Below are positions 50,300-64,000 of a stretch of DNA of 64,000 bases, in pieces (the first letter of the stretch is position 1; each line of letters opens with the position of its first letter). The DNA lies in assembly GCA_036172245.1 (NCBI GenBank), contig JAYWIR010000048.1:620001-684000 (forward strand). Direction: 5' to 3'. A model generated the notes under the pieces. That model worked only from the letters and a program-made list of their open reading frames with translations, ran no database searches and was not told where the DNA came from. The translations under genes were made by a program, and so were the position numbers. Source of the DNA: Raillietiella orientalis. Taxonomy: Eukaryota.

Positions 50300-53200
50300 T
50301 CCACGTCGCGGACAACCACCTTGAGGCCGAGGTGGGGCCATCTCGACGTGGTTCTCAAAAAGAGCGTCGTCCACTGGATGGCGTCCCTGCCATTTTTTCC
50401 TCTCCTTGTCGCGTTCTAGCACGCCACAATTTCACGGACACAGCAGCAGAGAGCTCCTGGTCGACGCTAAAAGTCTTAAAGTCTTTTCCTTCCGTACAAG
50501 GTAGGCAATCCATAATTTCGAGAGCGCAAGCGTCTTGTCGAAGGCGGATTAAACAAGAGGAGCCTCATACGATGACCATGCGCAGCACGCGTCAGTATTG
50601 GGAGATGGTCTGCATAGTGGCAGACCTTGATCAAAGATTACTAAGGACCCACGTTGTAATGGATCCTCAGTAATCATTGAGCAAGCTCCACCGGATCACG
50701 ATGGATCGCCCTGTGGTGGTCCACATTTTCGGTATAACGAGGCAGATGACCAAGGAGACCATCCGCAGCGAACTCGAAGTGCGGCACGGTGCACGCGCTG
50801 TGGGCAAAGCCCTCCCTTCGTAACGCACAACGGGCTTCTGTGCGGCCTCGCAGCATCGCGAATCACCGTCTGCAAGAGCTCTGTGCTGCCCCACAAGCTG
50901 CAGGGGGACCTATTCACGTGTGGCACGTGAAGAAACTGAGTATTATGCGCACTGCCACACTTCGGGACACACGAGGAAAAGGTACCCCAAAATATTGCGT
51001 GAAGTGTGCCAAACAAGGAAAACAAGGAGGAGGGGAGCGAGACGATGGCGTCTGTCGTCGTCGACGACAACGTGTATCGCCCTGGCCACGGAGGAGCTCG
51101 TGGCTACACTGCTAAAAAGTTTGCGGGTCCCAATCTACTTTTTCCACGATTTCCACGTACGTCCTCTTTCATCCATTTTACTTCAGACGTTGGTTGTAAC
51201 TCTGGAAAGCTTATTCATACGAAGGGTAACTTCGGTATGGACAGAGGGGGCACGTTGCCGACCCCTCCGGGTATATTGATTCTAACCTTAGCAGTGTCCA
51301 AGCAGTATCTTCTAGATTCTTCTTTTTGAGCAGTATAAATAGGCACCTTGAGGAACCGACTGTATGCACTCGATAATGTCCTGCGCGACGTGCAGTTCGA
51401 CGTTGCCACCCGGTCACGTCGGGGCGTTTATTATAAACATCGAGATTTGCAGTACAAGTCCCTGCTGCGACCAATAAACAAGTGACCTGCCGGGTCGTCA
51501 GAGCGCAGACTGACCTGACTCTATTCTATGTCTGCAGCAGTGATGCGCGTGCTCGCATCTTCTCGTCGCGTCCGCGTGGCCTGTTGGAACGTCAGCGGGC
51601 TGCAGGACAACGAGAAGAGGCGATTGGTAGGTAAAGTCTTGAGCGACTTGAGCAAAGCACAGAGGAATGGAAGGAAGCTGGGGCGAGGAGAAAGGTGGGT
51701 CCCAGAGCCTCTGGACGTCCCAGGTCCTGGCCAATTATAAACGTCCGACTTCTTTCCTCTTTCCTCACTTAGAACCTCATTCACACTTATGAGACCGCAT
51801 CCCTGCTTCCTTATCTCCCTGCTGCTCTCCCCTCATCCCCCTAGTCGACTCCCCCTAGTCATGCCCCCAGTTGGTTGCGACACCTATTTGTTTCCGTCTG
51901 AAGTCTGCCTCTCTCCTTTTATATTTATTTACTTTAAACAAATGACCTGGCATGTTTGCTAAGAAGGAAGAGATCCGGGAAGCTCGTTTGTGAACAAGCA
52001 GGAAGAGCCGAGCTCCCACTGGGACGCTGCGAGATTTCAGGGGCGGTAGGGAAGCGTACGGCGCGCTGTGCAATGTGGAGGGGGTGATCTGGAGTGACGA
52101 ATGAGAAGAATACAATAAAGAAATAGAATAAATAAATAAATGATGCTCATGAGGGAGGAAAGGGTCGCCGCTCTCCAGTGCTTTTGGTCCTTGGTTCTTG
52201 AGGGGCGCGGGAGCAAGCGGCCGTGCCTCGCCACTCTCCGCAGCGCGCCGGTGGGTGTTGGCTGGCTGCTCCCTCGAGCATGCGCAGTCGCAGCAGGTAT
52301 CGCTGCGGCGGACGGAGCACAGGAGCATGGCAAGTGGACCTCGGGCGAGGAAACTCCTGCGGACCATTCTTCGGTTGGAAGAGGAGAGCTTCTTGCTGCC
52401 CTCAAGGGAGGCACTCGAGGAGGTCTGCACAACTCACAAGCCTGTGACGTTGGAGCGGACCCATCAGGCTGTCCACTTACCGAGAGGTGTGGTCGCATTG
52501 GAAATGAACACCTCTTCCCCTGTTCCAGCTGGGCTGCTGCTGCTTGCTCTTTGTGGAACACAAAGCGCTATGGCCAAAGGTAATGGTGGATCACAGGATC
52601 CACTTCTGTGTCCCGCCTCATATCTTCAGAGAGACTCTATACTCTGGTAACGGACAAGACGTTGCAGTTTCGGGTTTTTCACCCGGATTTGCCGGGGCAT
52701 TCATTATTAAAATTTCATTATGAAGACTTTATCATGAAATTTTATTATTTTCAGGCGGAACGCGTGGTTCTGCCTGTCTGGAACACTTGTCCTCGCTGAC
52801 CTGAAGGCCAGTGAAGTCCTCTTCGCTGGCGAAGGGGGCAGCAAAACCACAAAAAAAAGAAAAAAACAAAAACACGAGCAGGAGCAATGTTTTGCGGAGA
52901 GGGGAGGGAAGGAAAAGGATCACAGGTTGCCGCGAGGAGTCTCCTGCATCTGGTTTTGGATACGGACAAGTGCCGGTCGAATTTTCCTTAGTCGGGGCAA
53001 TCGTGCAGCTTTCTCCATAGGGATTGCAGCCCAGTGAATGGTGTTCTGACTGTTGCAGCCTCTCCTCGAGGCAGTCTATTTGTCCAGGATTCTGCGTATG
53101 CAGCAGAGAACTGCTACACACGCTGCTGCCGGCAGGGTGTCCCGCGTCAGGAGGCGACGGAAAATGTCCCTTGGGTCGCCCACCGGAATATTCAGAATGA

Positions 53201-56200
53201 ACGATACGTCGATTGCACATTGGTCAGAGGGCGACACACTCCATGAGGATGGGGGGGAAGTTTTCCCTTTCCCCGTAGCCTGCACAATTGGCGTCCACAC
53301 TCCCTAATGTCCAGTGATAGAGGCGTGCTCTGCAAAGGAGTCTCCAGTGCAATACCAGCAGCGCCGTCTCCTGCCAATCCAAGGGGAGGGTGTCATTGTC
53401 TCAACGCGCTGGGAGCCTATTCACCTCCTCGGGAGGTATGCTGAGCAGCTCGCCCAGCGAGGTGCCTTATGGTGGCCTCGTGTATCCGATTTACTACGAA
53501 CATCTATTCTGGACTGACGTACTAGGTAGGCTTTCGAAAGATTTGGAAGGTACTATGTACTCTGAAGAACTCAGTAAGCCGCTTTCAGAAGAGACTGCCG
53601 GGAAACGGGTAGCAGGAAGCATACTGGGATAGGAGCAGCGAGTGCACCAGACGGACGAAGAGGATCCTGAAGAATAGGGAGAGCTACTTGCCTGGCTTTG
53701 CACTTCGCACTGATCATCATGCCAGTGTGAAGGTCACCCTGAGACATAGACACAGTGGCAGACCACCAGGCAACCCACTTCCTTTAGGGGAGATGACAGC
53801 CGTTCATGGGCGTTTGCCAGTCGAAGTCATCTTACGCGTGTGAACATAGATCGTGCGGTGGATCGATGACCTCTGCGCAGTGATGGTGCCAGTCGCCGCC
53901 ACTAGCTCTCGTAGGTGAGTGCAGCCAAGACGTTCGCAGCCCAACGTCATTTTTTTACCATCTGCTTTAGAGCATTGCAAACGATGTCATGCCAAAGACT
54001 CTACGAAGGTTGTAGTAAAGCGACATTTACGCTGCAGGGGTATTGTGTTCTTTTTGGATGTGAAACACAGGAGAGAAACGAGTGGGGAGCAAGGTAAGAG
54101 AGGCACTTTGGCCTTTATCTTGGAAAGGTGCGTCCTTCGTTATGTTGCTGAAGCGAGAAGGGAGTGTGAAGGGCTCTGGACCATATTTTCATAGCATACC
54201 GAACATGCGGTCAAAGTGCAGGACTTTCTGGTAGGCAGACGGAAAGAAGGAATAAGAAGAAGGAAGATGGAAGGAAGAAGGAGATGGAAGAAGGTCCATG
54301 GAAGAAGTCGCAGCTCGAAAATCGGGAAACCCCAAACAGAACAACGCTGGCATCCACAACGGTCTTGCGGGCAAAAGGCGTTGCGATCTCTGCTCATAGA
54401 CTTCATGAAGTTACTACTTTTCTGTCCAGAGAAGTGATGAGACAAATCTATCGTCCTCTGTGGCTGCTGTAGGGGACGACTCTCCTGCTAATGGAAAGAC
54501 ATTGCTGTTCCTGATGCTTTGCTTTGGTAATGCAGGGCACGCAGGATAAGAAGATTGCTCACCAAATGATATGAGGTGCAAGACTCGGGTCGGCCGAGAA
54601 CACAGCTCTGGAGATGTAGGTGGATCCCGGATTCAGGAAACCCACGCCAGAAATAATGCAAGGAACGATTTCCAAGGCTCTGTTCCACTTTAAAAGAGGA
54701 TGAATGTCCCCTCGAGGATTTCGTCAGCATTCCATCCTGCCGGCGAGTCCTCGTGGCATGGCCATCTCCTCCTCTCCTCCTTGAGAAACAAGCCTTCGGA
54801 AATTCTTCAGTTCTTCTGTGAGTACCTGAAGAGCACTAGACATCCTGGAGAATTGGGATGCTGTTTTCGAATTTACACTCGTCTGAACACAAAGCAAGGC
54901 CACGGCAACCTTTTTTGGCAAGCGGGGATCCTCCCCGGCGTGACCGGGTGGCAACAAGCGGGATCCTGTCTCTCCCTCGAATGCCGAGGCATATGGAGGC
55001 ATTTCAGAATGCCGATCCCGGATAAATCCTGCGACAGAATTCGTGTAGGAGTTACGACGCTAGCAGCTCCCCGGAGAGCCATTCGTTTCCTGCACGCGGC
55101 AGCTCTCTGACTGGCTGCTATAAAAGGAGTCCCACGGAGCGAACTCGGCTCTCCACAGGGCTCATCTCCTCACTGCCGCGGCTGGAGGGACCTGCTCCAG
55201 AAGGCAGCTCTTGTTCCCTGCAGCTCTTCCCGCCAGAGCACGCCGGTAAACTATGAGGATCGATTTTTTCCTCCTCCTCCGGTGCGTTTGCGAAACGGAT
55301 CTCACGTTTGGAGCTCCTCTTCGGACGTGTGCAGCGATGCACTGGAGCATCTCGCGCTCGCTGAACCTCGCCGTCTTCATTTGCAAATCAACTTTCTGGA
55401 AACGAAGGAAGCGCGCATCTCTCACCTCTCAACCAGGAAGAAATTCGCGTTGGACGTCTCAGTGCATGACGAATCCCTCTGTTCCGCAGGAAAGACAAAA
55501 GCCATGGAAGCTGCCTTCATTAGGAGTTCTTGACAGCCGGAAAAAAGATTATTTGTTCTCAACCTCGGAGTTCTCCTGAAACGAGAGCAGATGGATGCAG
55601 AAAACGGATGTTTTCATCGAAGTAAGAGTTGGAAGCAGTGGTTTTATCTTCCCTGGAGAGGAGAACAAGCCGAGTCTTTTGCGCACCGTTTGCAAGAACC
55701 CTTGAGAAATTCGCTATCACTTTCCAGGTTTCCCGAAAGTATCTTAATTCGGCAGTCACCTTTTAGCACGGGAGGAAGACAAGTGAGGAAGTGCAAATCC
55801 ATGGCAGTTCATATTGCAGGTTGTCATGGGAACTGCTATCTCCTGAAGATTCCTGAAGGCCAGATCATTGCATCCATCTATAAAACTGGATGACTGCAAT
55901 CAGCCGGTTCATGTGCTTGGAGAATGCTGACGAATTCTGGCAAAATCATGCAGAATAGAAGATCTCTTTGTTTGTCGGCGCAAACAAAGACGGACGAAGA
56001 GGTTGCAAAGATTGCATGGTGTAGCTGAAGAGATCGCATGGTGATTTTCCTTTGAACCAACCAGCAACGAGCTGGAAGACGCAGGAGGAAATTGCAAAGG
56101 ACAGCAGGAATAGCGAACAGATGTCGCGTCCACTAGCAGAGGAGCAGCAAGAAGAACCAAAAACATGTCATATTCTCAGCTCCGAATGAAAGGCGATCTC

Positions 56201-57600
56201 CGAAGCAGTACCACAGCTTCTCCTGAAACAAAAGCGGAGCTGCGCATGCGTCGTGCACGGTCCCTTGTCTTGGTGATCGAATTTGACGGCAACGTAAGCT
56301 TGACCGAAGAGTTTTTTTTCGATGGCCAGCAAGAAGTGATCCCTATGGAAAAAATTCTTTCATCGCGATGCTCCATGAATTCTTTCGCGCTTTTGTACGC
56401 AGAAAGAAAGTATGTCCTGAAAAGCACTGCTTGGTCCTCGAACCCATCTTCACTCAGAGAGTGGTGGGTGAAACTGAAGTGGAATCTCTCCGACTTGTCA
56501 TCTCTAATCGTTGCTAATTCTCTTTTCATACTCGAGGAAGGTGCTTCAACAGGTGCGCCACCGACTCACCCACCCTTCGTCCTTACTTTCGTTTCGCCCC
56601 TCGCCGCAGCGCTGTCTGCTCTCAGGGCAAGAGACGACAACTGCCTTCCGGGGAGGTGGGAGGTTTCCCGCACCATAGCAGGAAGAAGAAAATTCCTCGG
56701 CGACTGGAAGACGAGTGAGTTGGCGGACGCCGCCACTCCTCGTGCTACTGCGAAGTGACTCCTTCGATGGGGAGAAGAACTTGGTGTTACCCCCCAAGAA
56801 CTAGTGGTCCCTTTCCATTTTGTTGATAGTTCGCTGCTTCCCCTTGCTTGGAAACAAGCCGTGTTGCTCTTCCTTCACTGAGGTTTTCAGTGTAACGAGC
56901 GATGACATCGTGTTTCCGGGGGGCTTGAGTCCGCGAACTATGCAAGGCGCGGCGACGGAGTCGATCCCACACCTACTTTTGGACTGCGGTATCCTCCGAA
57001 GACTCTGGCGGCTGGCAACAGCACTTTCGCATCAAGAGGATACCGCAAGAGACTTGCTGCGGAGGTTCTTTGCGCCGAGCGGGCTTTCGAGAAGCGCAGT
57101 GATTGCAACCATGGGTTACACCTGAGCCATCGTTTCGGCCCGACAGGTGCTGGTGGTAAACGGACAGAGAAAGATCATCAGGAAGGCAGCCACCTACATC
57201 GGGAAGGCCCTCAGATGGCCTTGTGTGACAGAAGAGGCGAAAGAGATCACCGATATCCACCACCGGTTTACAGACGGTTTGCAACGCCGAACCAACGCAA
57301 TCCTTGCATCTCCTGCCCCATACATATTTATTTTTATTCTGAACCCTCGTTCCCTTAGGCTCCGTAACTTTCCCGATGTGCTTTTTGTTTTTTACCTCGG
57401 TGAAAACGAAGCCTCACCATAACGTCGGGTCTTTACCCGCACCCCTTCCCTCCCGTTTTGCTTTTGGTTGCTGTCCCTTCGTCCACCCCCCGTTTGGAAC
57501 TGTCCGTTTTCCGGTCTTGCATGCCGGTGGCCCGTCTCTTTCTTCTGCTGTTTTGTTGGTTGGGGACTTTGTCCCCGACTGGTTTAGTAATAAACGCCCG
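50300..57600 (+). mobile_element. Near full-length degenerate L1/Tx1-type retrotransposon (ORF1 gag knuckle, APE, RT, zf-RVT, 3' UTR) with a nested insertion
   Basis: PKYCVKCAKQG (~50990), VACWNVSGLQDNEKRRLV (51575-51630), SQPNVIFL (~53935), RT remnants at 55200-55800, ESIPHLLLDCGILRRLW (~56960) and a pyrimidine-rich UTR at 57320-57590. Confidence 0.8.
51660..53910 (-). mobile_element. 5'-truncated L1/Tx1-type element nested antisense in the APE domain of the outer element
   Basis: IPPEEVNRL...VLHWRLLCRARLYHWTLG (~53300-53440) resembles VxWxxLCxPxxxGGLG. HRLVSCADL (~52440) is zf-RVT-like. AT-rich UTR at 52105-52140. Confidence 0.65.
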
Positions 57601-57619
57601 GCATGACCGGGTGATAAAC

Positions 57620-58340
57620 TTTCGTTCGGGTGCAAAAAACCAGAGCATTCCACAGCAGTATTCTGGAAATTTCCTTGAAATTCTGAGGAGGCCTGGAAGA
57701 CCTGCATGATTGATGAAATAACACAGATCATCTAACAACAGCAGGAGGCTAGTTTTGGGAATGTTACGATCTCACTTGGCATCCAGGAAAGGTCAAATCC
57801 TTTGCGAGTGTGCCACAGACAGGGATGTTAGTTAACATTACTGCAGCATGGCTTCATGATTTCACTGTATTTTGTACTGCAACACCGACTGCATGAGAAA
57901 AAGCATTACAAAATACATCATTCTAGGTGGTGTAATAGCTGACTTTACCTATTTATTACCACTGCGGCATTTTACACCGTCCAAGAAAACGCAAAGAAAT
58001 GGGCAATTCAGTACGGTAATCCAACAGAAGGAAAACTGCTTCTCGGGGAAGGCACAGACCCAATAGCTATTATATAGGGCCACATTCCAGCAAAACTGTA
58101 TTTGCTAGGTGCGATTTCAGTCGGGAAGCAACAGCGGATTAGGTGTACATGCTGTGGAAGATCAAAGGAGCGCTGAGTAACATCAAAAGCGGTTGCTGCT
58201 ATGTCACGAAAATTAGCACGTATCTTTTACAGTATGCGAAAGTATGGAGAAGGATATGTAGAGACGGAATCGGCTGCCATGAGGAAGTGCATAAAAAGAG
58301 TGTGTTGAAGAAGTGAAGCAAAAGGGCTGGTAAACTTGAC
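57620..58340 (+). mobile_element. Degenerate bacterial IS110-family transposase fragment (C-terminal half)
   Basis: 58183-58340 reads SKAVAAMSRKLARIFYSMRKYGEGYVE then (frameshift) HEEVHKKSVLKK*SKRAGKL, the IS110 KAxxAxARKLAxIxYxMLKxGxxYVE...YExxYK...KRA terminus. Upstream ILGGVIADFTYLLPLRHFT, GKLL and SNSGLG are colinear. Confidence 0.75.
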
Positions 58341-59599
58341 CGCGTTTTACTATAAGAAACAAAAACAGAAGAACGTGAACTCGTAGGGCAGGTTTCTTGG
58401 AAGACGAAGAGTGCCATCCGATTTGAACAAGATGAGCAGCGGGAAAGAATTCCAAGAGACTGCCGTCTAGCAGATGAGAGGAGCAGAAAATAAAAGGAAT
58501 CTATAGCTGCAGCAACGTTGGTAGGCAAGACAGGGACGACGTGGAGGGCACTGCCTGCTGAGTATGGAAAGTGTTCTGGAATACACTAGCGCTTTATGGG
58601 ACGTGTTCGAAAGGTGGCTCTCAAGAAGTTCGCTGCTAATAAGGAAGCAGAGTTTTAGGAGCAGTCGTTTCGAAGGGTCAGGGAAAATTTCCAACCGTAA
58701 GCGGACATTATGACGGCCTGATTTCTTGTTCGCAGAGCGGATCCAGGCATCAGCGCAGAATCCAGCAAAAGCGGAAGAGCCCACGCAGGCCTCAATTGAC
58801 GCGTCCTCGAAAAGATCCACGTGTCCTTTCGGCCTTTTTTCAGCAACCCATTTGCCGCTTATTGAGGATTTGGGATTTGAGGAGCACAGAGGCAATCGGT
58901 TCTCGTTGCCGGAAGAAGGGGAGAGAGGGAAAGCGCCCGCGGTGCCGGAGGAAGAATTGACTTTCTTGGCTGCCATTCATCTGCATTATACGGAACGGAC
59001 TTCAATGCAACTCGGGAGCGGGGCGCTAAGAGAAATGGGGTTGGACACATAGGACCATGGAAGAACAGATGGGCGATAAATCCTTTCCTCAGCAAATTAT
59101 CCGGACACGTGAAGATGAAGAGGAGACAATCCATGGAATGCGTTGAAAGCCATTGAGACGTCACTCCAGCAGCAGAACTGGGACACTGCGGATACACTTC
59201 GTTGAAAACCAAGGAACTGAACATTGAAACGGATGCAGTGCATCTGGTGTATGCGGAGTGTGCTTAGGTGCTCCCTCGCTTTGGAGACGTGAAATCTGCA
59301 GAAACGAAAACGTGGTCATTTCGTTCACAGAATTCATTAGGGGACGACTAGAGCATGGGATGAAATTATTTGGAATGCGTGACGTGTGTTACCTTGTCGA
59401 TGGCGAGGGCAAAACACAGATAATGTGCATCCTCTGATGCCTCAGTGAACGCGGAGCTCGGAAGCTCTCGGATCTCTGTCTTCGTGATCGAACTGATGCG
59501 CATGGGTGATCTCTACTTTGCTCCAGAGTCACTGTTTTCAAGGACGATCAGTGGGATTGCTGTAAAGAACGCTTCGCTCCTCTTGTAGAGCACAGTTGA

Positions 59600-60650
59600 A
59601 CCTGTATCCGGATAACATGCATGGAGTCAGCCGTTTGCTTGCTAAATTTTCGACTATCGTTTCTCTGGTTGCAGATCAACGCGATTCCTTCAGCACGTTC
59701 TTTCCATGCTCTTCGCCATCGAAAGGGCGCTCTCAGCCGAGATGCACGGAAAGAACCCTCCCGTTTCTTTTCGCAAAAACTGCACAGTTGCCTAGGGAGC
59801 GAGATTTCGCTTCCACATGTCCAGTCGCCTGATCGGGAACCCGTCGAGCACGAGAGACTGGGTGGCAGAATTGCATGGAGAGACCGTTAAGGCAGGGAGC
59901 GCTGGCACGTTGAGGCGTTCTCCATTCTTCCTGCCGTCCAGTGAAACTGGATGCTTCCCGAATGCAGCTCTGGAAGGGTCACATGTTGAGTTTCCTCCCG
60001 AACGGATTCGTTGCTGAATCTCGTGCTGCCTCCTCGTCCGCTGAAAGGCATGCATCTCATGTAGAATGCCAGTGCGTAAATACGTTCGGTGAAGTCGTCA
60101 CCAGTTCACTATATTCATGATGCGATTACACATTGATGAGGACCGTGAATTCAGCCCCATCCCAGCTTGCATCTGCGGATTGAGCTCGGAGCTCAGAACA
60201 AGATCGAAGGATTGCCAGTCAGCAAATGTCCCAAGAACAGCAAGACGTGGAGCACGTTCCTGCTCGAGGCAAAACATCGTCGGGCTCCGCGCGCGATCCC
60301 GACGTTGCATCCGTGGTTTTAAACCAGTACATTCCAGAATTTCCGGTGACTGCAGAATTTTCGCGAAGCAGCCCGAACACGGAAATCGGCGTCTGCATCT
60401 CCAGCCGGAACCTTCCATGCCAGGAAGCCTTGTATCCCTCCAAATTCGCTTATCCCACCCCGCTTGGGAAGGCAATCGAACAGCAAGCGCAGTTTTGGAA
60501 ATCGCCCCTGCAGAGTCAGGGATTCCGTGCAGAGAGAGTTATGGTTGCAGCAGCCAGCGGGGTATCCGCACGAGACTGCTGACTGCTGGTGGTGCCGGCA
60601 CGGCATCTGGAGCCGCGGAGACCGCTCGGGGAGAATGGCCCGCATCGTGA
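59600..60650 (+). mobile_element. hAT transposase relic (C-terminal dimerization domain)
   Basis: AQFWKSPLQSQGFRAERVMVAAASGVSARD (60480-60580) resembles FWK....FPxL..xA..VL..PASSxxxER. The upstream extent is uncertain. Confidence 0.5.
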
Positions 60651-61999
60651 GCTTCTAGCCTGCGTGGGAACTCGCAGGCTCCCTGGCAACGCACTTCAGG
60701 CCACCCGTCCGGCCTCTCCCTTGGACACCATCGCACCGCGCTCTCTCAGTACCCGCGGAGCTCTTCGCGCCGGAGCAGCGCCCTTCGCCTTTTATGGAGG
60801 TCTCGTGGACCGATGCGCAGAATGAGCCTTCAAGAGTGAAGCCTGGCGACGTGGCACTTGGATGCACGGACGCACGGCTGTGCGGATCTTTGACGGATGC
60901 CCAGTTTGGCAGAATAAAAATGATCAGCGTTGTAAGCTGTTGAAAAGACTCAAAAAGAAGTAAACAAAGTTCGTGGTTTGTTGACTAGTGGATCTGCACG
61001 TGATCATGTGGGTCTATTTCTAGGCAAGAGGAAATGCGACACAGAAAACAGAGCAAAGGATAACCGACATTCGGGCTGCGCGTAGCTTTGGAAACATGCC
61101 CAGTAAGAACCACGGCAACGAGGCAACTAAAGCTTTTTCCTCTTCCCGATGAAGATTACTTCCGAATCAGAATCTCCATGAGATTTTGATTGGGATAGCT
61201 TGATGAGATTTCATCTTTGCCCTTGCCTGTCGGCAGGAAACTGCTCGCTCCGGTGAACTCCCCGCTTCCAGCGGCGCATAATTGGTGAGGCAGTCAGTGG
61301 AAGTGCATCATCTTCACGGCTCACAAGAAAGACAATTCGAAGAAGAAGCGAAGAAAAAGTTCTTCGCTTCCGTCACTTCAGGGCTATCCTTCCAGTGGGC
61401 TATCTTCCTTCAGGGCTATCTCTCTGCTTTTGGTGCTACGAACAGGCGCATCCATGGTAACGGATGCTGTTTAGCGAGGCGCTAATAAAAGAGAGCGCAG
61501 TCGGTTACCAAATTCCCACTGCCAATCAGTTCACGCAGCTGCTTGTCAGGAATTCATAGCTCCTCTATGCAAACCGAGTTCGCGCTTCTCCCGAAGAGGT
61601 CTTTCAGCAGTGGTCACTCTCAGAGATGACAGTCGTATGTGTGGCACTCATGGCGAAGGGGACAAAAAAAATTAAAATTTCTCGGTGCACATTTCTGGGG
61701 CAAAGTGACATAAGTAGCATTGCGAGAGACAGGCGTCGCAACGAATGCCGAAGTGGTGAAAACTTCAATGCCTTCCTTGTTTGAAAATGACGTTGAGTGT
61801 CTATTCAAGCCAAATTTCCCATTCAAAGAAAAAGGGTGGCACACGAACACTCATCAGCTGAATCGTGTTCGTTTCAATGGGTCGCTCTATCATTACAGTA
61901 TTTTTAATGAATCGCACAAGATTGGAGTTTTTCATTGACTCTTTGCACCAAACCATCACGAAACCCACATGCTCATAATCTCCTAGGAAACGTGGAGCA

Positions 62000-64000
62000 C
62001 GTTGTTCGTGATCTCATTCAGTGCGGCGTTATTCGTTTATCGGCACGCACAAAGGAACACAAGGAGGACGACAGCACGGCAGAAACCACGGCAGCCATCA
62101 CCCCCAAATACCGAATCTCTGAAGATTCCCTCTTTCCGTGAAGACGAATCTCAGGTGAAATTGGGTGCTGGGAGGTGTTTTCAGGACAGCTAGACGGCTG
62201 CGCCGCCCTCTCCTTTGCACACGATTTTCTTCAAGACGAAGGCGGATGATATTTCTTCTTCTTCAAGCTCGCTGCAGACTCGCGCATGGCGCTTACCTGC
62301 AAAGCAGTCGCGAGCTTCTTCTTCGTTCACTGTACAAAGCCTCGCGCTTGTGTCCCTCTCCTGAAATGATTCAAGAGGACCGTTTGTCCCCGAGCATTCC
62401 CAGTGCCGCGGTCATGGAACATGGGAGCAAAACCCAGCGAGCATCCAAGAATATCATCTAAAAAGAAAAAGGCATTCCGATGTTTCTGTCGTTCCTTCGA
62501 GTCCGTAGCTTCTTTCGCAGAACGGCTGAGTCTTTAAAGAGGAAGACGAGGGAGTCGAGTGCACACGGGAAAAGAAAAATCCTCAGGCAGCCGTTGAAAC
62601 TGTGCTCCAAGAAGCCGGGAGTAATTCTTCCATCAGTTATGTGTTTACTGAGCTGCGCAGTCAATAGGATTGGTAGGCTCATATGAGCTCGGCTTCTCGA
62701 CGATTGAAGGACGAAAAAGACTCACGCAGAGAGATCGAAACAGCTTTCTGCATGCGAAAGATGGGAGGGACTCAGAGGACCAAACGTAATCTGAAAATTA
62801 AACTGAAGAATCCATTCGAAGAGGCCATGGAGCACGAAAAATTGTCAGCTTCAAAATCGATTAATGAATTCCGTGTAAGGATATTTCAGCCAGCATATGA
62901 GGATGTCAAGGATTTGGAAGCATTTTCAAGTGAGATTTTGAAAATCCCGCGCGACTGAAAGTCAAATGAGCAGCCAAACGTGTCAAGGGGGTGCAGCAAA
63001 CGGAACGAAATTCGTCTGCCCGATTACCATCAGGTCCACGGACTTTTGAAATTCCTGCGCCGTTTCCAGGCTGAGCCTCCATTACAGGATTTCATTGGCG
63101 AGATCCGACGCGGATGGAGCAGGGACCACGGCGTCTGGGAGAGGAAGCATCTCCAGTAGCCGGTCGGTTGGTCCCTCTGCGCAGCGTCTCAGTAAGTTCG
63201 CCTCCGACCAGGAAACGCATCGAGTGCCTCGGAGGACGGAGGGGGTGTCGCGAAATTCAAAGTGGAGTGGCCTTGACCACGCGGTCCGTCCGCTCATGCC
63301 GAATGAGAAAGTGCGGGTCCTCCCTCCCGCCTCCTTCCTGCAACGGTCTCCAGCTCGTCACCAGCGATCGCGGGAAACCCGATCATGTAGATGAGGGCCT
63401 CTTTTCAATTAAGGTCGCTTGTTGGCGTCTGCGAGCCGCCGCCACCCCTTTGCCTGGACCGCGGTCCTCTAGGGAGCCAAATACTCCCAGCGATTATTCA
63501 TGGAGAGGGAAACATGGACCTCGTCGAGTTTCCAGATCGTAGGTCAAGAGTCGTCTGCAGATGAATTTCGCTGCTGCTGGAGTTCGACCTATCCCGAGTG
63601 AGGACCTCAGCAGGCCACAGAGCTCGCAGACTGTGCCGGAAGGCTTCTCGAAATTCCAGCTTGGTAGCGTGGGAAGTCCAGGACGCTCCGAAAGAGGGAA
63701 GAAGGCAGAGTGGGAGTGCGCTCTCAGTTTGCTTTTGTTTGCTCTCACTCTAGAATGAAGTGTGCATCTTTTGCAACCTTCGAGATCTACGATGAAGCGT
63801 AGATTTTTTGTCCCCCTTATTCGGTTCCTGGAACATGCCCGAAGTCAGAGTTTCTTCTTCCTCTTTTTTTTTTCATCACCTTTGGACGAGTTCTCTGTTA
63901 AGGATTCTCAGACGGACTCTCGGAAAGTGATGTTGGAGATGCTCGAACCTTCAGGATAGAGAGGCGCATTTTATCGCTCGTGTGGATGCAAGCAGGGTGA
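62000..64000 (-). mobile_element. Degenerate L1/Tx1-type ORF2 (RT region)
   Basis: SKVRGPDGNRADEF (~63010-63050), FRMQKAV (~62750) and GCLRIFLFPCALDSL (~62570) are RT motifs in the correct order. Confidence 0.6.

Follow-up and report, generated by a model that had tools for sequence, protein, structure and literature searches.

The locus described here raises the question of how a piece of a bacterial IS110-family transposase came to lie in what appears to be eukaryotic DNA, how much of the element is left, and from which bacteria it came. The first-pass annotation of this DNA had described an IS110 relic that fills 57620..58340, directly downstream of an L1/Tx1 3' end, and had attributed it to an old transfer from an arthropod endosymbiont. 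Our analysis covers the whole stretch in which the relic lies (64,000 nucleotides, called the window below; all coordinates are window positions). It reveals two adjoining relics on the plus strand, one of the IS110 family and one of the IS5 family, and the bacterial origin of the pair is well supported. We consider it fairly probable that the segment occupied by the pair (58096-58629) is a fragment of a dead bacterial IS-in-IS nest that was transferred into the genome of a eukaryotic host.

The C-terminal end of an IS110 transposase

Judged from the sequence, demonstrable IS110 homology is confined to 58096-58403, which corresponds to the last ~100 codons of the gene plus the end motif of the element, or about one fifth of a ~455-residue transposase gene. 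The segment can be divided into two parts: the C-terminal ~85 codons of a transposase belonging to a ~455-residue IS110 subgroup (58096-58352, plus strand), which are recognised by NCBIfam, tblastn, HMM and frameshift-aware alignment; and the final codons together with the right-end motif GTTTCTTGGAAG (58353-58403, plus strand, with the motif at 58392-58403), which are recognised by pattern and PWM searches. The peptide VTSKAVAAMSRKLARIFYSMRKYGEGYVE is encoded in frame 1 of the plus strand at 58177-58263, with a TGA stop codon (58174) immediately before it; the helix peptide picked out in the first-pass annotation occupies 58186-58263 of that frame. The peptide is thus present as quoted, but the residues KRA, which had been read as its continuation, lie at ~58320-58328 in a different frame. 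The stops and frameshifts noted at the same time are real: the relic has three stops (TGA 58174, TGA 58314 and TAA 58353) and requires at least one frameshift, near 58263-58266, while some alignments introduce further possible frameshifts at ~58127, ~58150 and ~58183. The element is dead.

Each of the database matches to IS110 is weak when taken singly, and the assignment draws on several of them. The NCBIfam profile of IS110 family RNA-guided transposases (NF033542) is matched at positions 286-341 of 343 with an E-value of 0.053 and a score of 12.7 bits, which is below the curated cut-off of 140; a local match of this kind is as expected, because the fragment is short and C-terminal. When 58096-58275 was used as a tblastn query against 72,556 plasmids, 118 records were matched, and among the 60 listed, 52 are annotated as IS110 family, five are unannotated, three are hypothetical and none is annotated as another family, although the E-values are individually only 0.08-8. 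In the reverse direction, a 446-residue protein from one of these plasmids (L002) matches the window at 58105-58263 with an E-value of 7e-5, and its next best match in the window has an E-value of 1.

A broader set of relatives was collected with a peptide pattern taken from an alignment and applied to one genome per prokaryote species, which gave at least 616 pattern matches, at least 244 of them confirmed by tblastn. The best 80 of these confirmed matches, from 78 distinct loci, were retained, and 45 distinct full-length proteins encoded at these loci served to build a subgroup HMM of 457 positions. Across the six frames of the window the HMM has a single match, at 58096-58296 (28.3 bits, HMM positions 360-426); with a weak colinear continuation in another frame, the overall match covers positions 360-452 only. 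Frameshift-aware alignment of proteins to DNA gives scores of 94-105 for three plasmid proteins and up to 131-142 for closer relatives, compared with a mean of 31, a standard deviation of 5 and a maximum of 52 for 820-base chunks taken from elsewhere in the window (313 chunks, both strands). Colinear over ~85-100 codons, the alignment lies ~10 standard deviations above this null, a within-window figure that is somewhat inflated because the queries were chosen for their resemblance to 58096-58403. The tail that follows the frameshift played no part in the choice of queries. When only this tail is scored, at the position expected for it, between 1 and 127 of 2314 null chunks reach its score, the number varying with the relative, and without positional constraint it is the top window match for none of six relatives; the tail therefore adds modest independent support only.

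The features shared with the subgroup go beyond the helix. The relic keeps, colinear over ~100 codons, the KAV-A-ARKLA-I/LFY helix, the YG--YV- turn, the basic tail and the terminal V-S-stop of these ~450-475 residue proteins, which are found on plasmids of Enterobacter/Citrobacter, Skermanella and Rhizobium (L002, L007 and L008) and at the genome loci L012-L089. Unlike them, it is reduced to a fifth of the gene, is broken by stops and a frameshift, has 35-40% identity to its best relatives, and is without the DEDD domain, a recognisable Transposase_20 core and the bridge-RNA region.

Pfam Transposase_20 (PF02371) has no match at E<=10 in ten single-frame pieces or in a read-through translation, and in this respect the IS110 assignment, positive by NCBIfam, plasmid tblastn, the subgroup HMM and alignment, is not carried by Pfam. 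In an intact relative, Transposase_20 spans residues 316-398 of a 474-residue frame, so that the surviving ~100 codons overlap only the last part of the domain. Pfam DEDD_Tnp_IS110 (PF01548) is likewise not matched in the region or in any of the six frames across 50-64 kb; since the HMM match begins at position 360, the DEDD domain is absent and the relic is therefore truncated. Run exhaustively against 1.8 billion representative sequences, phmmer returned no IS110 protein at E<=0.001, and a word-indexed search of 5.8 billion proteins with the read-through translation as query found nothing. The three matches that phmmer did return (two ankyrin-repeat proteins and one other tandem-repeat protein, at 57997-58070) were judged spurious, because their scores are inflated by repeats and the same residues align elsewhere too. 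The stretch 57997-58070 also aligns, without support, to the S-W-L-G-L-S-P-G-N-K-I-S-G-G-K region of IS110 proteins.

It could be argued from the single-search E-values (0.05-10), and from the blank results of Pfam and of the two large protein searches, that the resemblance is a matter of chance, a short helix-like peptide in junk DNA with no IS110 ancestry. We regard this as exceedingly unlikely, given the consistent annotation of the plasmid matches, with no other family among the 60 listed of 118, the colinearity over ~85-100 codons far above the window null, and the presence of a DNA end motif at the right distance (see below).

IS110 ancestry being accepted, the relic is shorter than first described, although the end motif and the IS5 neighbour (see below) anchor it more firmly. 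The supported segment is ~300 bp and not 720 bp, and 57620-58095 is without supported homology. A low-GC block (57640-58095, plus strand, 42% GC) shares its GC content with the relic: over 57640-58400 the GC content is 42-44%, with a sharp onset at ~57640 (from 52% to 42%), and the CpG o/e is 0.56 at 57631-58340 compared with 0.85-0.98 in the flanks. Because of this composition, 57640-58095 may be what is left of the middle of the IS110 gene, decayed beyond recognition. The subgroup HMM finds no match in 57631-58110, and in a position-constrained test the summed score of 57930-58099 over 32 relatives is equalled by 358 of 1490 null chunks; some pairwise alignments reach upstream to 57958, but not above chance. 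Extension of the relic to 57930 or to 57631 is thus unsupported by the HMM and the null-chunk test. The plus strand also has a purine excess at 58100-58700 (GC skew ~+0.3, AT skew +0.2 to +0.35) that differs from the flanks and covers both the IS110 and the IS5 relic.

The right-end motif and an adjoining IS5 relic

The typical gene end among the bacterial relatives is GTTTCTTAG, in which TAG is the stop codon, with GAA coming next. The corresponding pattern, GTTWCYBRGRAR, was written after both the bacterial ends and the window had been viewed, so that the weight of the motif has to be discounted somewhat; in the window it has two matches, compared with 1.05 expected by chance. The instance at 58392-58403 on the plus strand lies 206 nt past the K codon at 58186, and the same pattern is present in 29 of 87 bacterial ORFs, 183-272 nt (median 198) past the K codon of the KAVTATARK-type peptide. 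A PWM derived from 26 bacterial instances ranks 58392-58403 second among ~128,000 window positions. The relic thus carries the right-end motif of the subgroup at the stop position of the gene and at the same distance as in its relatives, as far as a pattern written post hoc can tell, with the TAG stop of the family replaced by TGG at 58398.

Directly after the IS110 end lies a second relic, which is a new finding of the present analysis. It is the N-terminal region (DUF4096/OrfA) of an IS5-family transposase at ~58428-58629, on the same strand and ~25 nt from the IS110 end motif, and it is recognised by Pfam, NCBIfam, tblastn and OrfA queries. DUF4096 is the N-terminal part of IS4/IS5-type transposases. 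The Pfam family (PF13340) is matched at 58476-58598 with an E-value of 0.0012 in the six-frame search and 0.001 on the piece (19.7 bits, cut-off 34.3), and is the sole Pfam family in the six frames of 50-64 kb; the NCBIfam IS5 family profile (NF033580) is matched at positions 18-66 of 258 with an E-value of 3e-5 (23.7 bits, cut-off 110). Both are local matches that fall below whole-protein cut-offs. In addition, every annotated match of the relic in the plasmid tblastn search is an IS5 family transposase, and each of three IS5 OrfA queries has its best window match at this position (E-values of 7e-6 to 3e-4, within the window). One alignment begins at 58377, at odds with the other two. In common with the IS5 family (NF033580, transpos_IS5_3), the relic keeps the N-terminal ~50-70 residues with the T-G-x-x-W-R-x-L-P core; unlike the family, it has no detectable DDE part, and its frame is interrupted by two stops (TAA 58491 and TAG 58587) and a +1 frameshift near 58585.

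Further downstream, at 58731-59153 on the plus strand, there may be remnants of the IS5 DDE domain; the resemblance there is colinear and at the level of motifs, with no statistical support. It includes a 91-codon open frame (58881-59153) that resembles, again colinearly and at motif level, the C-terminal part of IS5 DDE transposases. Neither Pfam nor NCBIfam matches a DDE domain in 58643-59153, and the pairwise scores of ~40 are at the null level. The sole plasmid tblastn match to this candidate (E-value of 1) lies beside thiC, in a gap that has no annotation, and does not represent an IS5 element. Beyond it, no NCBIfam family is matched in the six frames of 59101-64000.

The position of one insertion sequence at the end of another has parallels among the bacterial relatives. 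We analysed 24 bacterial loci downstream of the right-end motif, using the two longest frames per locus: nine have a same-strand IS3-type ORF (HTH_21/rve), which in seven of them starts at the motif; three have a group II intron reverse transcriptase/maturase, and Rfam introns are matched in three loci; a further IS110 and an ISAzo13-type transposase were found at one locus each; at seven loci the frames are ordinary genes; and at three they could not be recognised. The ~455-residue subgroup is therefore often inserted inside other mobile elements, as would be expected if the family selects insertion sites by their sequence, and the relic, which adjoins another mobile element, resembles its relatives in this. 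The partner differs, in that the neighbour of the relic is IS5-type whereas those of the relatives are IS3-type frames or group II introns; an IS5-type neighbour was found downstream of the motif at none of the 24 loci. The motif often lies directly 5' of a same-strand IS3-type OrfA/OrfB, or beside group II introns (L012-L089, L001 and L007-L010), and this abutment suggests that the guide RNA of the subgroup targets conserved sequences of other mobile elements.

Host setting and junctions

The setting of the relics is inferred to be eukaryotic, from the gene-poor DNA, a zf-RVT-like lead and an AATAAA with a run of A before 57640. The window contains no ORF longer than 227 residues, and none of 143 ORFs of at least 95 residues across 1-49.6 kb matches a Pfam family (E<=0.01); the transposable element and viral relics claimed elsewhere in the window must therefore be strongly degraded or occupy shorter frames. 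The GC content of the window is 49% and its CpG o/e 0.86, Rfam finds nothing in it, and its only tandem repeat is a purine-rich array at 54244-54304.

To the left of the relics, an open frame on the plus strand at 56805-57125 contains a zf-RVT-like cysteine/histidine motif. The ESM-Atlas clusters nearest to 56805-57122 are eukaryotic zf-RVT proteins (PF13966, score 0.90), a lead from a language model only, and the frame could be the C-terminal end of the ORF2 of a non-LTR retroelement, the left neighbour of the relic. It is followed by a pyrimidine-rich stretch on the plus strand (57126-57639) that contains an AATAAA at 57589-57594 and six A at 57634-57639, and may represent the putative 3' UTR and end of such an element; the AT skew is -0.39 and the GC skew -0.13 to -0.23 at 57200-57649. 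Neither RVT_1 nor zf-RVT is matched by Pfam at E<=0.1 when 50-64 kb is read in all six frames, and no relatives were found for the ORF at 56114-56755. The L1/Tx1 3' end that had been placed here is thus not confirmed, since the language-model lead stands alone and no reverse transcriptase domain is recognised in 50-64 kb.

The junctions were also examined in one public sequencing run, which contains 14% of the sampled window words and possibly derives from the assembly's own sample. Short contigs of this run are identical to the window at 56828-57257 and 58438-58630 at a depth of 2-3, the contig over the IS5 relic having a depth of 2.8, which is single-copy-like and similar to that of the flanks. 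At this depth, no contig of the run covers 57472-58405 or bridges either junction; the absent cover says little because the depth is thin. A 21-letter joint from 52141 to 58623 in the same run was taken as a short shared repeat. Elsewhere, contigs of the run pile up at 51868-52334, with a summed depth of ~349 compared with 0-9 in the rest of 50-64 kb and with many loose contig ends at ~52109-52151, which indicates a high-copy host repeat.

These data bear on a chimeric assembly or contamination, in which a stretch of pseudogenised bacterial insertion sequences would have been wrongly joined to host DNA. The gap in the contigs between 57472 and 58405, with no junction bridged, and the sharp fall in GC content at ~57640 are what speak for such a join, although the thin depth leaves the first of these with little weight. 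The DNA on both sides is ORF-poor and without any bacterial gene family, so that contamination by a bacterial contig is unlikely; the bacterial piece would have to be ~0.5-1.5 kb long and consist solely of broken IS fragments; and 58438-58630 is present, identical and at the depth of the host-like flanks, in a run that is possibly the assembly's own sample. We therefore consider a chimera improbable, and the earlier view that this is decayed prokaryotic DNA and not simple contamination finds support.

A resident family of eukaryotic IS110-like transposons, multiplied in the host and represented here by one decayed copy, is likewise unlikely. The composition of the block is nearer to that of the host than to that of AT-rich endosymbionts, as such a family would have it, but an unrelated, prokaryote-type IS5/DUF4096 relic abuts the IS110 relic on the same strand, which fits an IS-rich chunk of bacterial DNA, and the bacterial right-end motif is kept. 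The depth of the contig over the IS5 relic is, moreover, single-copy-like, and neither protein search nor the subgroup HMM finds a second IS110-like piece in the 64-kb window. An IS110-like candidate at 52212-52421 on the minus strand (E-value of 1) was rejected, as its translation is without the ARKLA motif. A limited literature search found no description of eukaryotic IS110 transposons.

Origin and significance of the probable nest

The bacterial origin of the relics, which the abutting IS5 relic and the conserved IS110 right-end motif strengthen, can be set out as a sequence of events. In the nest, an IS110-family element would be represented by its final ~300 bp (the C-terminal ~100 codons and the right-end motif), and a same-strand IS5-family element, of which the initial ~200-250 bp remain, would follow directly. 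The abutment is most simply read as the original bacterial arrangement, because relatives of the subgroup typically sit in other mobile elements. Bacterial DNA with the nest would then have become part of a eukaryotic nuclear genome, where neutral decay may have added the stops and frameshifts while the composition drifted towards that of the host. The left part, including the 5' part of the IS110 element that is now missing, would later have been removed or replaced, with a non-LTR retroelement whose 3' end lies at ~57640 as the probable cause. Nothing in either relic can function, as the DEDD domain, the serine region, the bridge-RNA region and the IS5 DDE domain are missing or unrecognisable; with every catalytic part absent, the IS110 relic cannot act.

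The donor of this bacterial DNA is less clear than its bacterial nature. Among the best 80 of the at least 244 confirmed genome matches, the best relatives all have 35-40% identity and comprise environmental genomes of several phyla and one amoeba symbiont. They include an Alphaproteobacteria genome bin (32 of 85 codons identical), a Syntrophales bin (34 of 86), a deltaproteobacterial bin, and the amoeba symbiont Candidatus Paracaedibacter symbiosus (36 of 94). The alignment scores of the relatives fall from 131 to ~105 across many phyla, which gives no resolution of the donor. Wolbachia and Rickettsia are absent from these best 80 matches and from the matches listed for the trimmed plasmid tblastn query. 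A longer query had matched two Rickettsia plasmids, which dropped out once the query was limited to 58096-58275, the part with supported homology. The proposed arthropod-endosymbiont donor thus finds no support, the relatives being spread over several phyla at 35-40% identity and the searches giving no sign of Wolbachia or Rickettsia.

That bacterial insertion sequences can pass into host genomes is already known, and the relic is one more fossil instance of it. A study of the ant Formica exsecta reportedly found Wolbachia-derived transposase pseudogenes in the nuclear genome. The divergence of the present relic is far greater than that of recent Wolbachia insertions, and it differs from Wolbachia insertions in having no affinity to Wolbachia or Rickettsia and a GC content of 43-50% instead of ~35%. 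Passages of a preprint on horizontal gene transfer in termites list the transposon domains PF01548, PF02371 and PF01609 among the Wolbachia-derived transfers (10.1101/2025.03.16.643567), and the relic pair is like those described there in that fragments of IS110 and IS4/5-type transposases persist as pseudogenes in host DNA (10.1101/2025.03.16.643567).

The relic pair has no function and leaves our understanding of IS110 biology and of gene transfer unchanged. In living bacteria, IS110 elements move by means of a DEDD/serine recombinase that a bridge RNA guides to a specific target sequence, as reportedly described by Durrant and by Hiraizumi in 2024. That a lineage of such bridge-RNA-guided recombinases was once active in a eukaryote and targeted a resident element, with the present copy as its fossil, is in our view very unlikely. 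The nesting habit of the bacterial subgroup and its conserved end motif may nonetheless be of interest to those who study target choice by bridge RNAs. The protein tail and the end motif together still allow a fragment of ~300 bp to be assigned to a definite IS110 subgroup, and if the copy number in the host and the orthologous loci were known, the relic could serve to date an ancient encounter of the host with an IS-rich bacterium.
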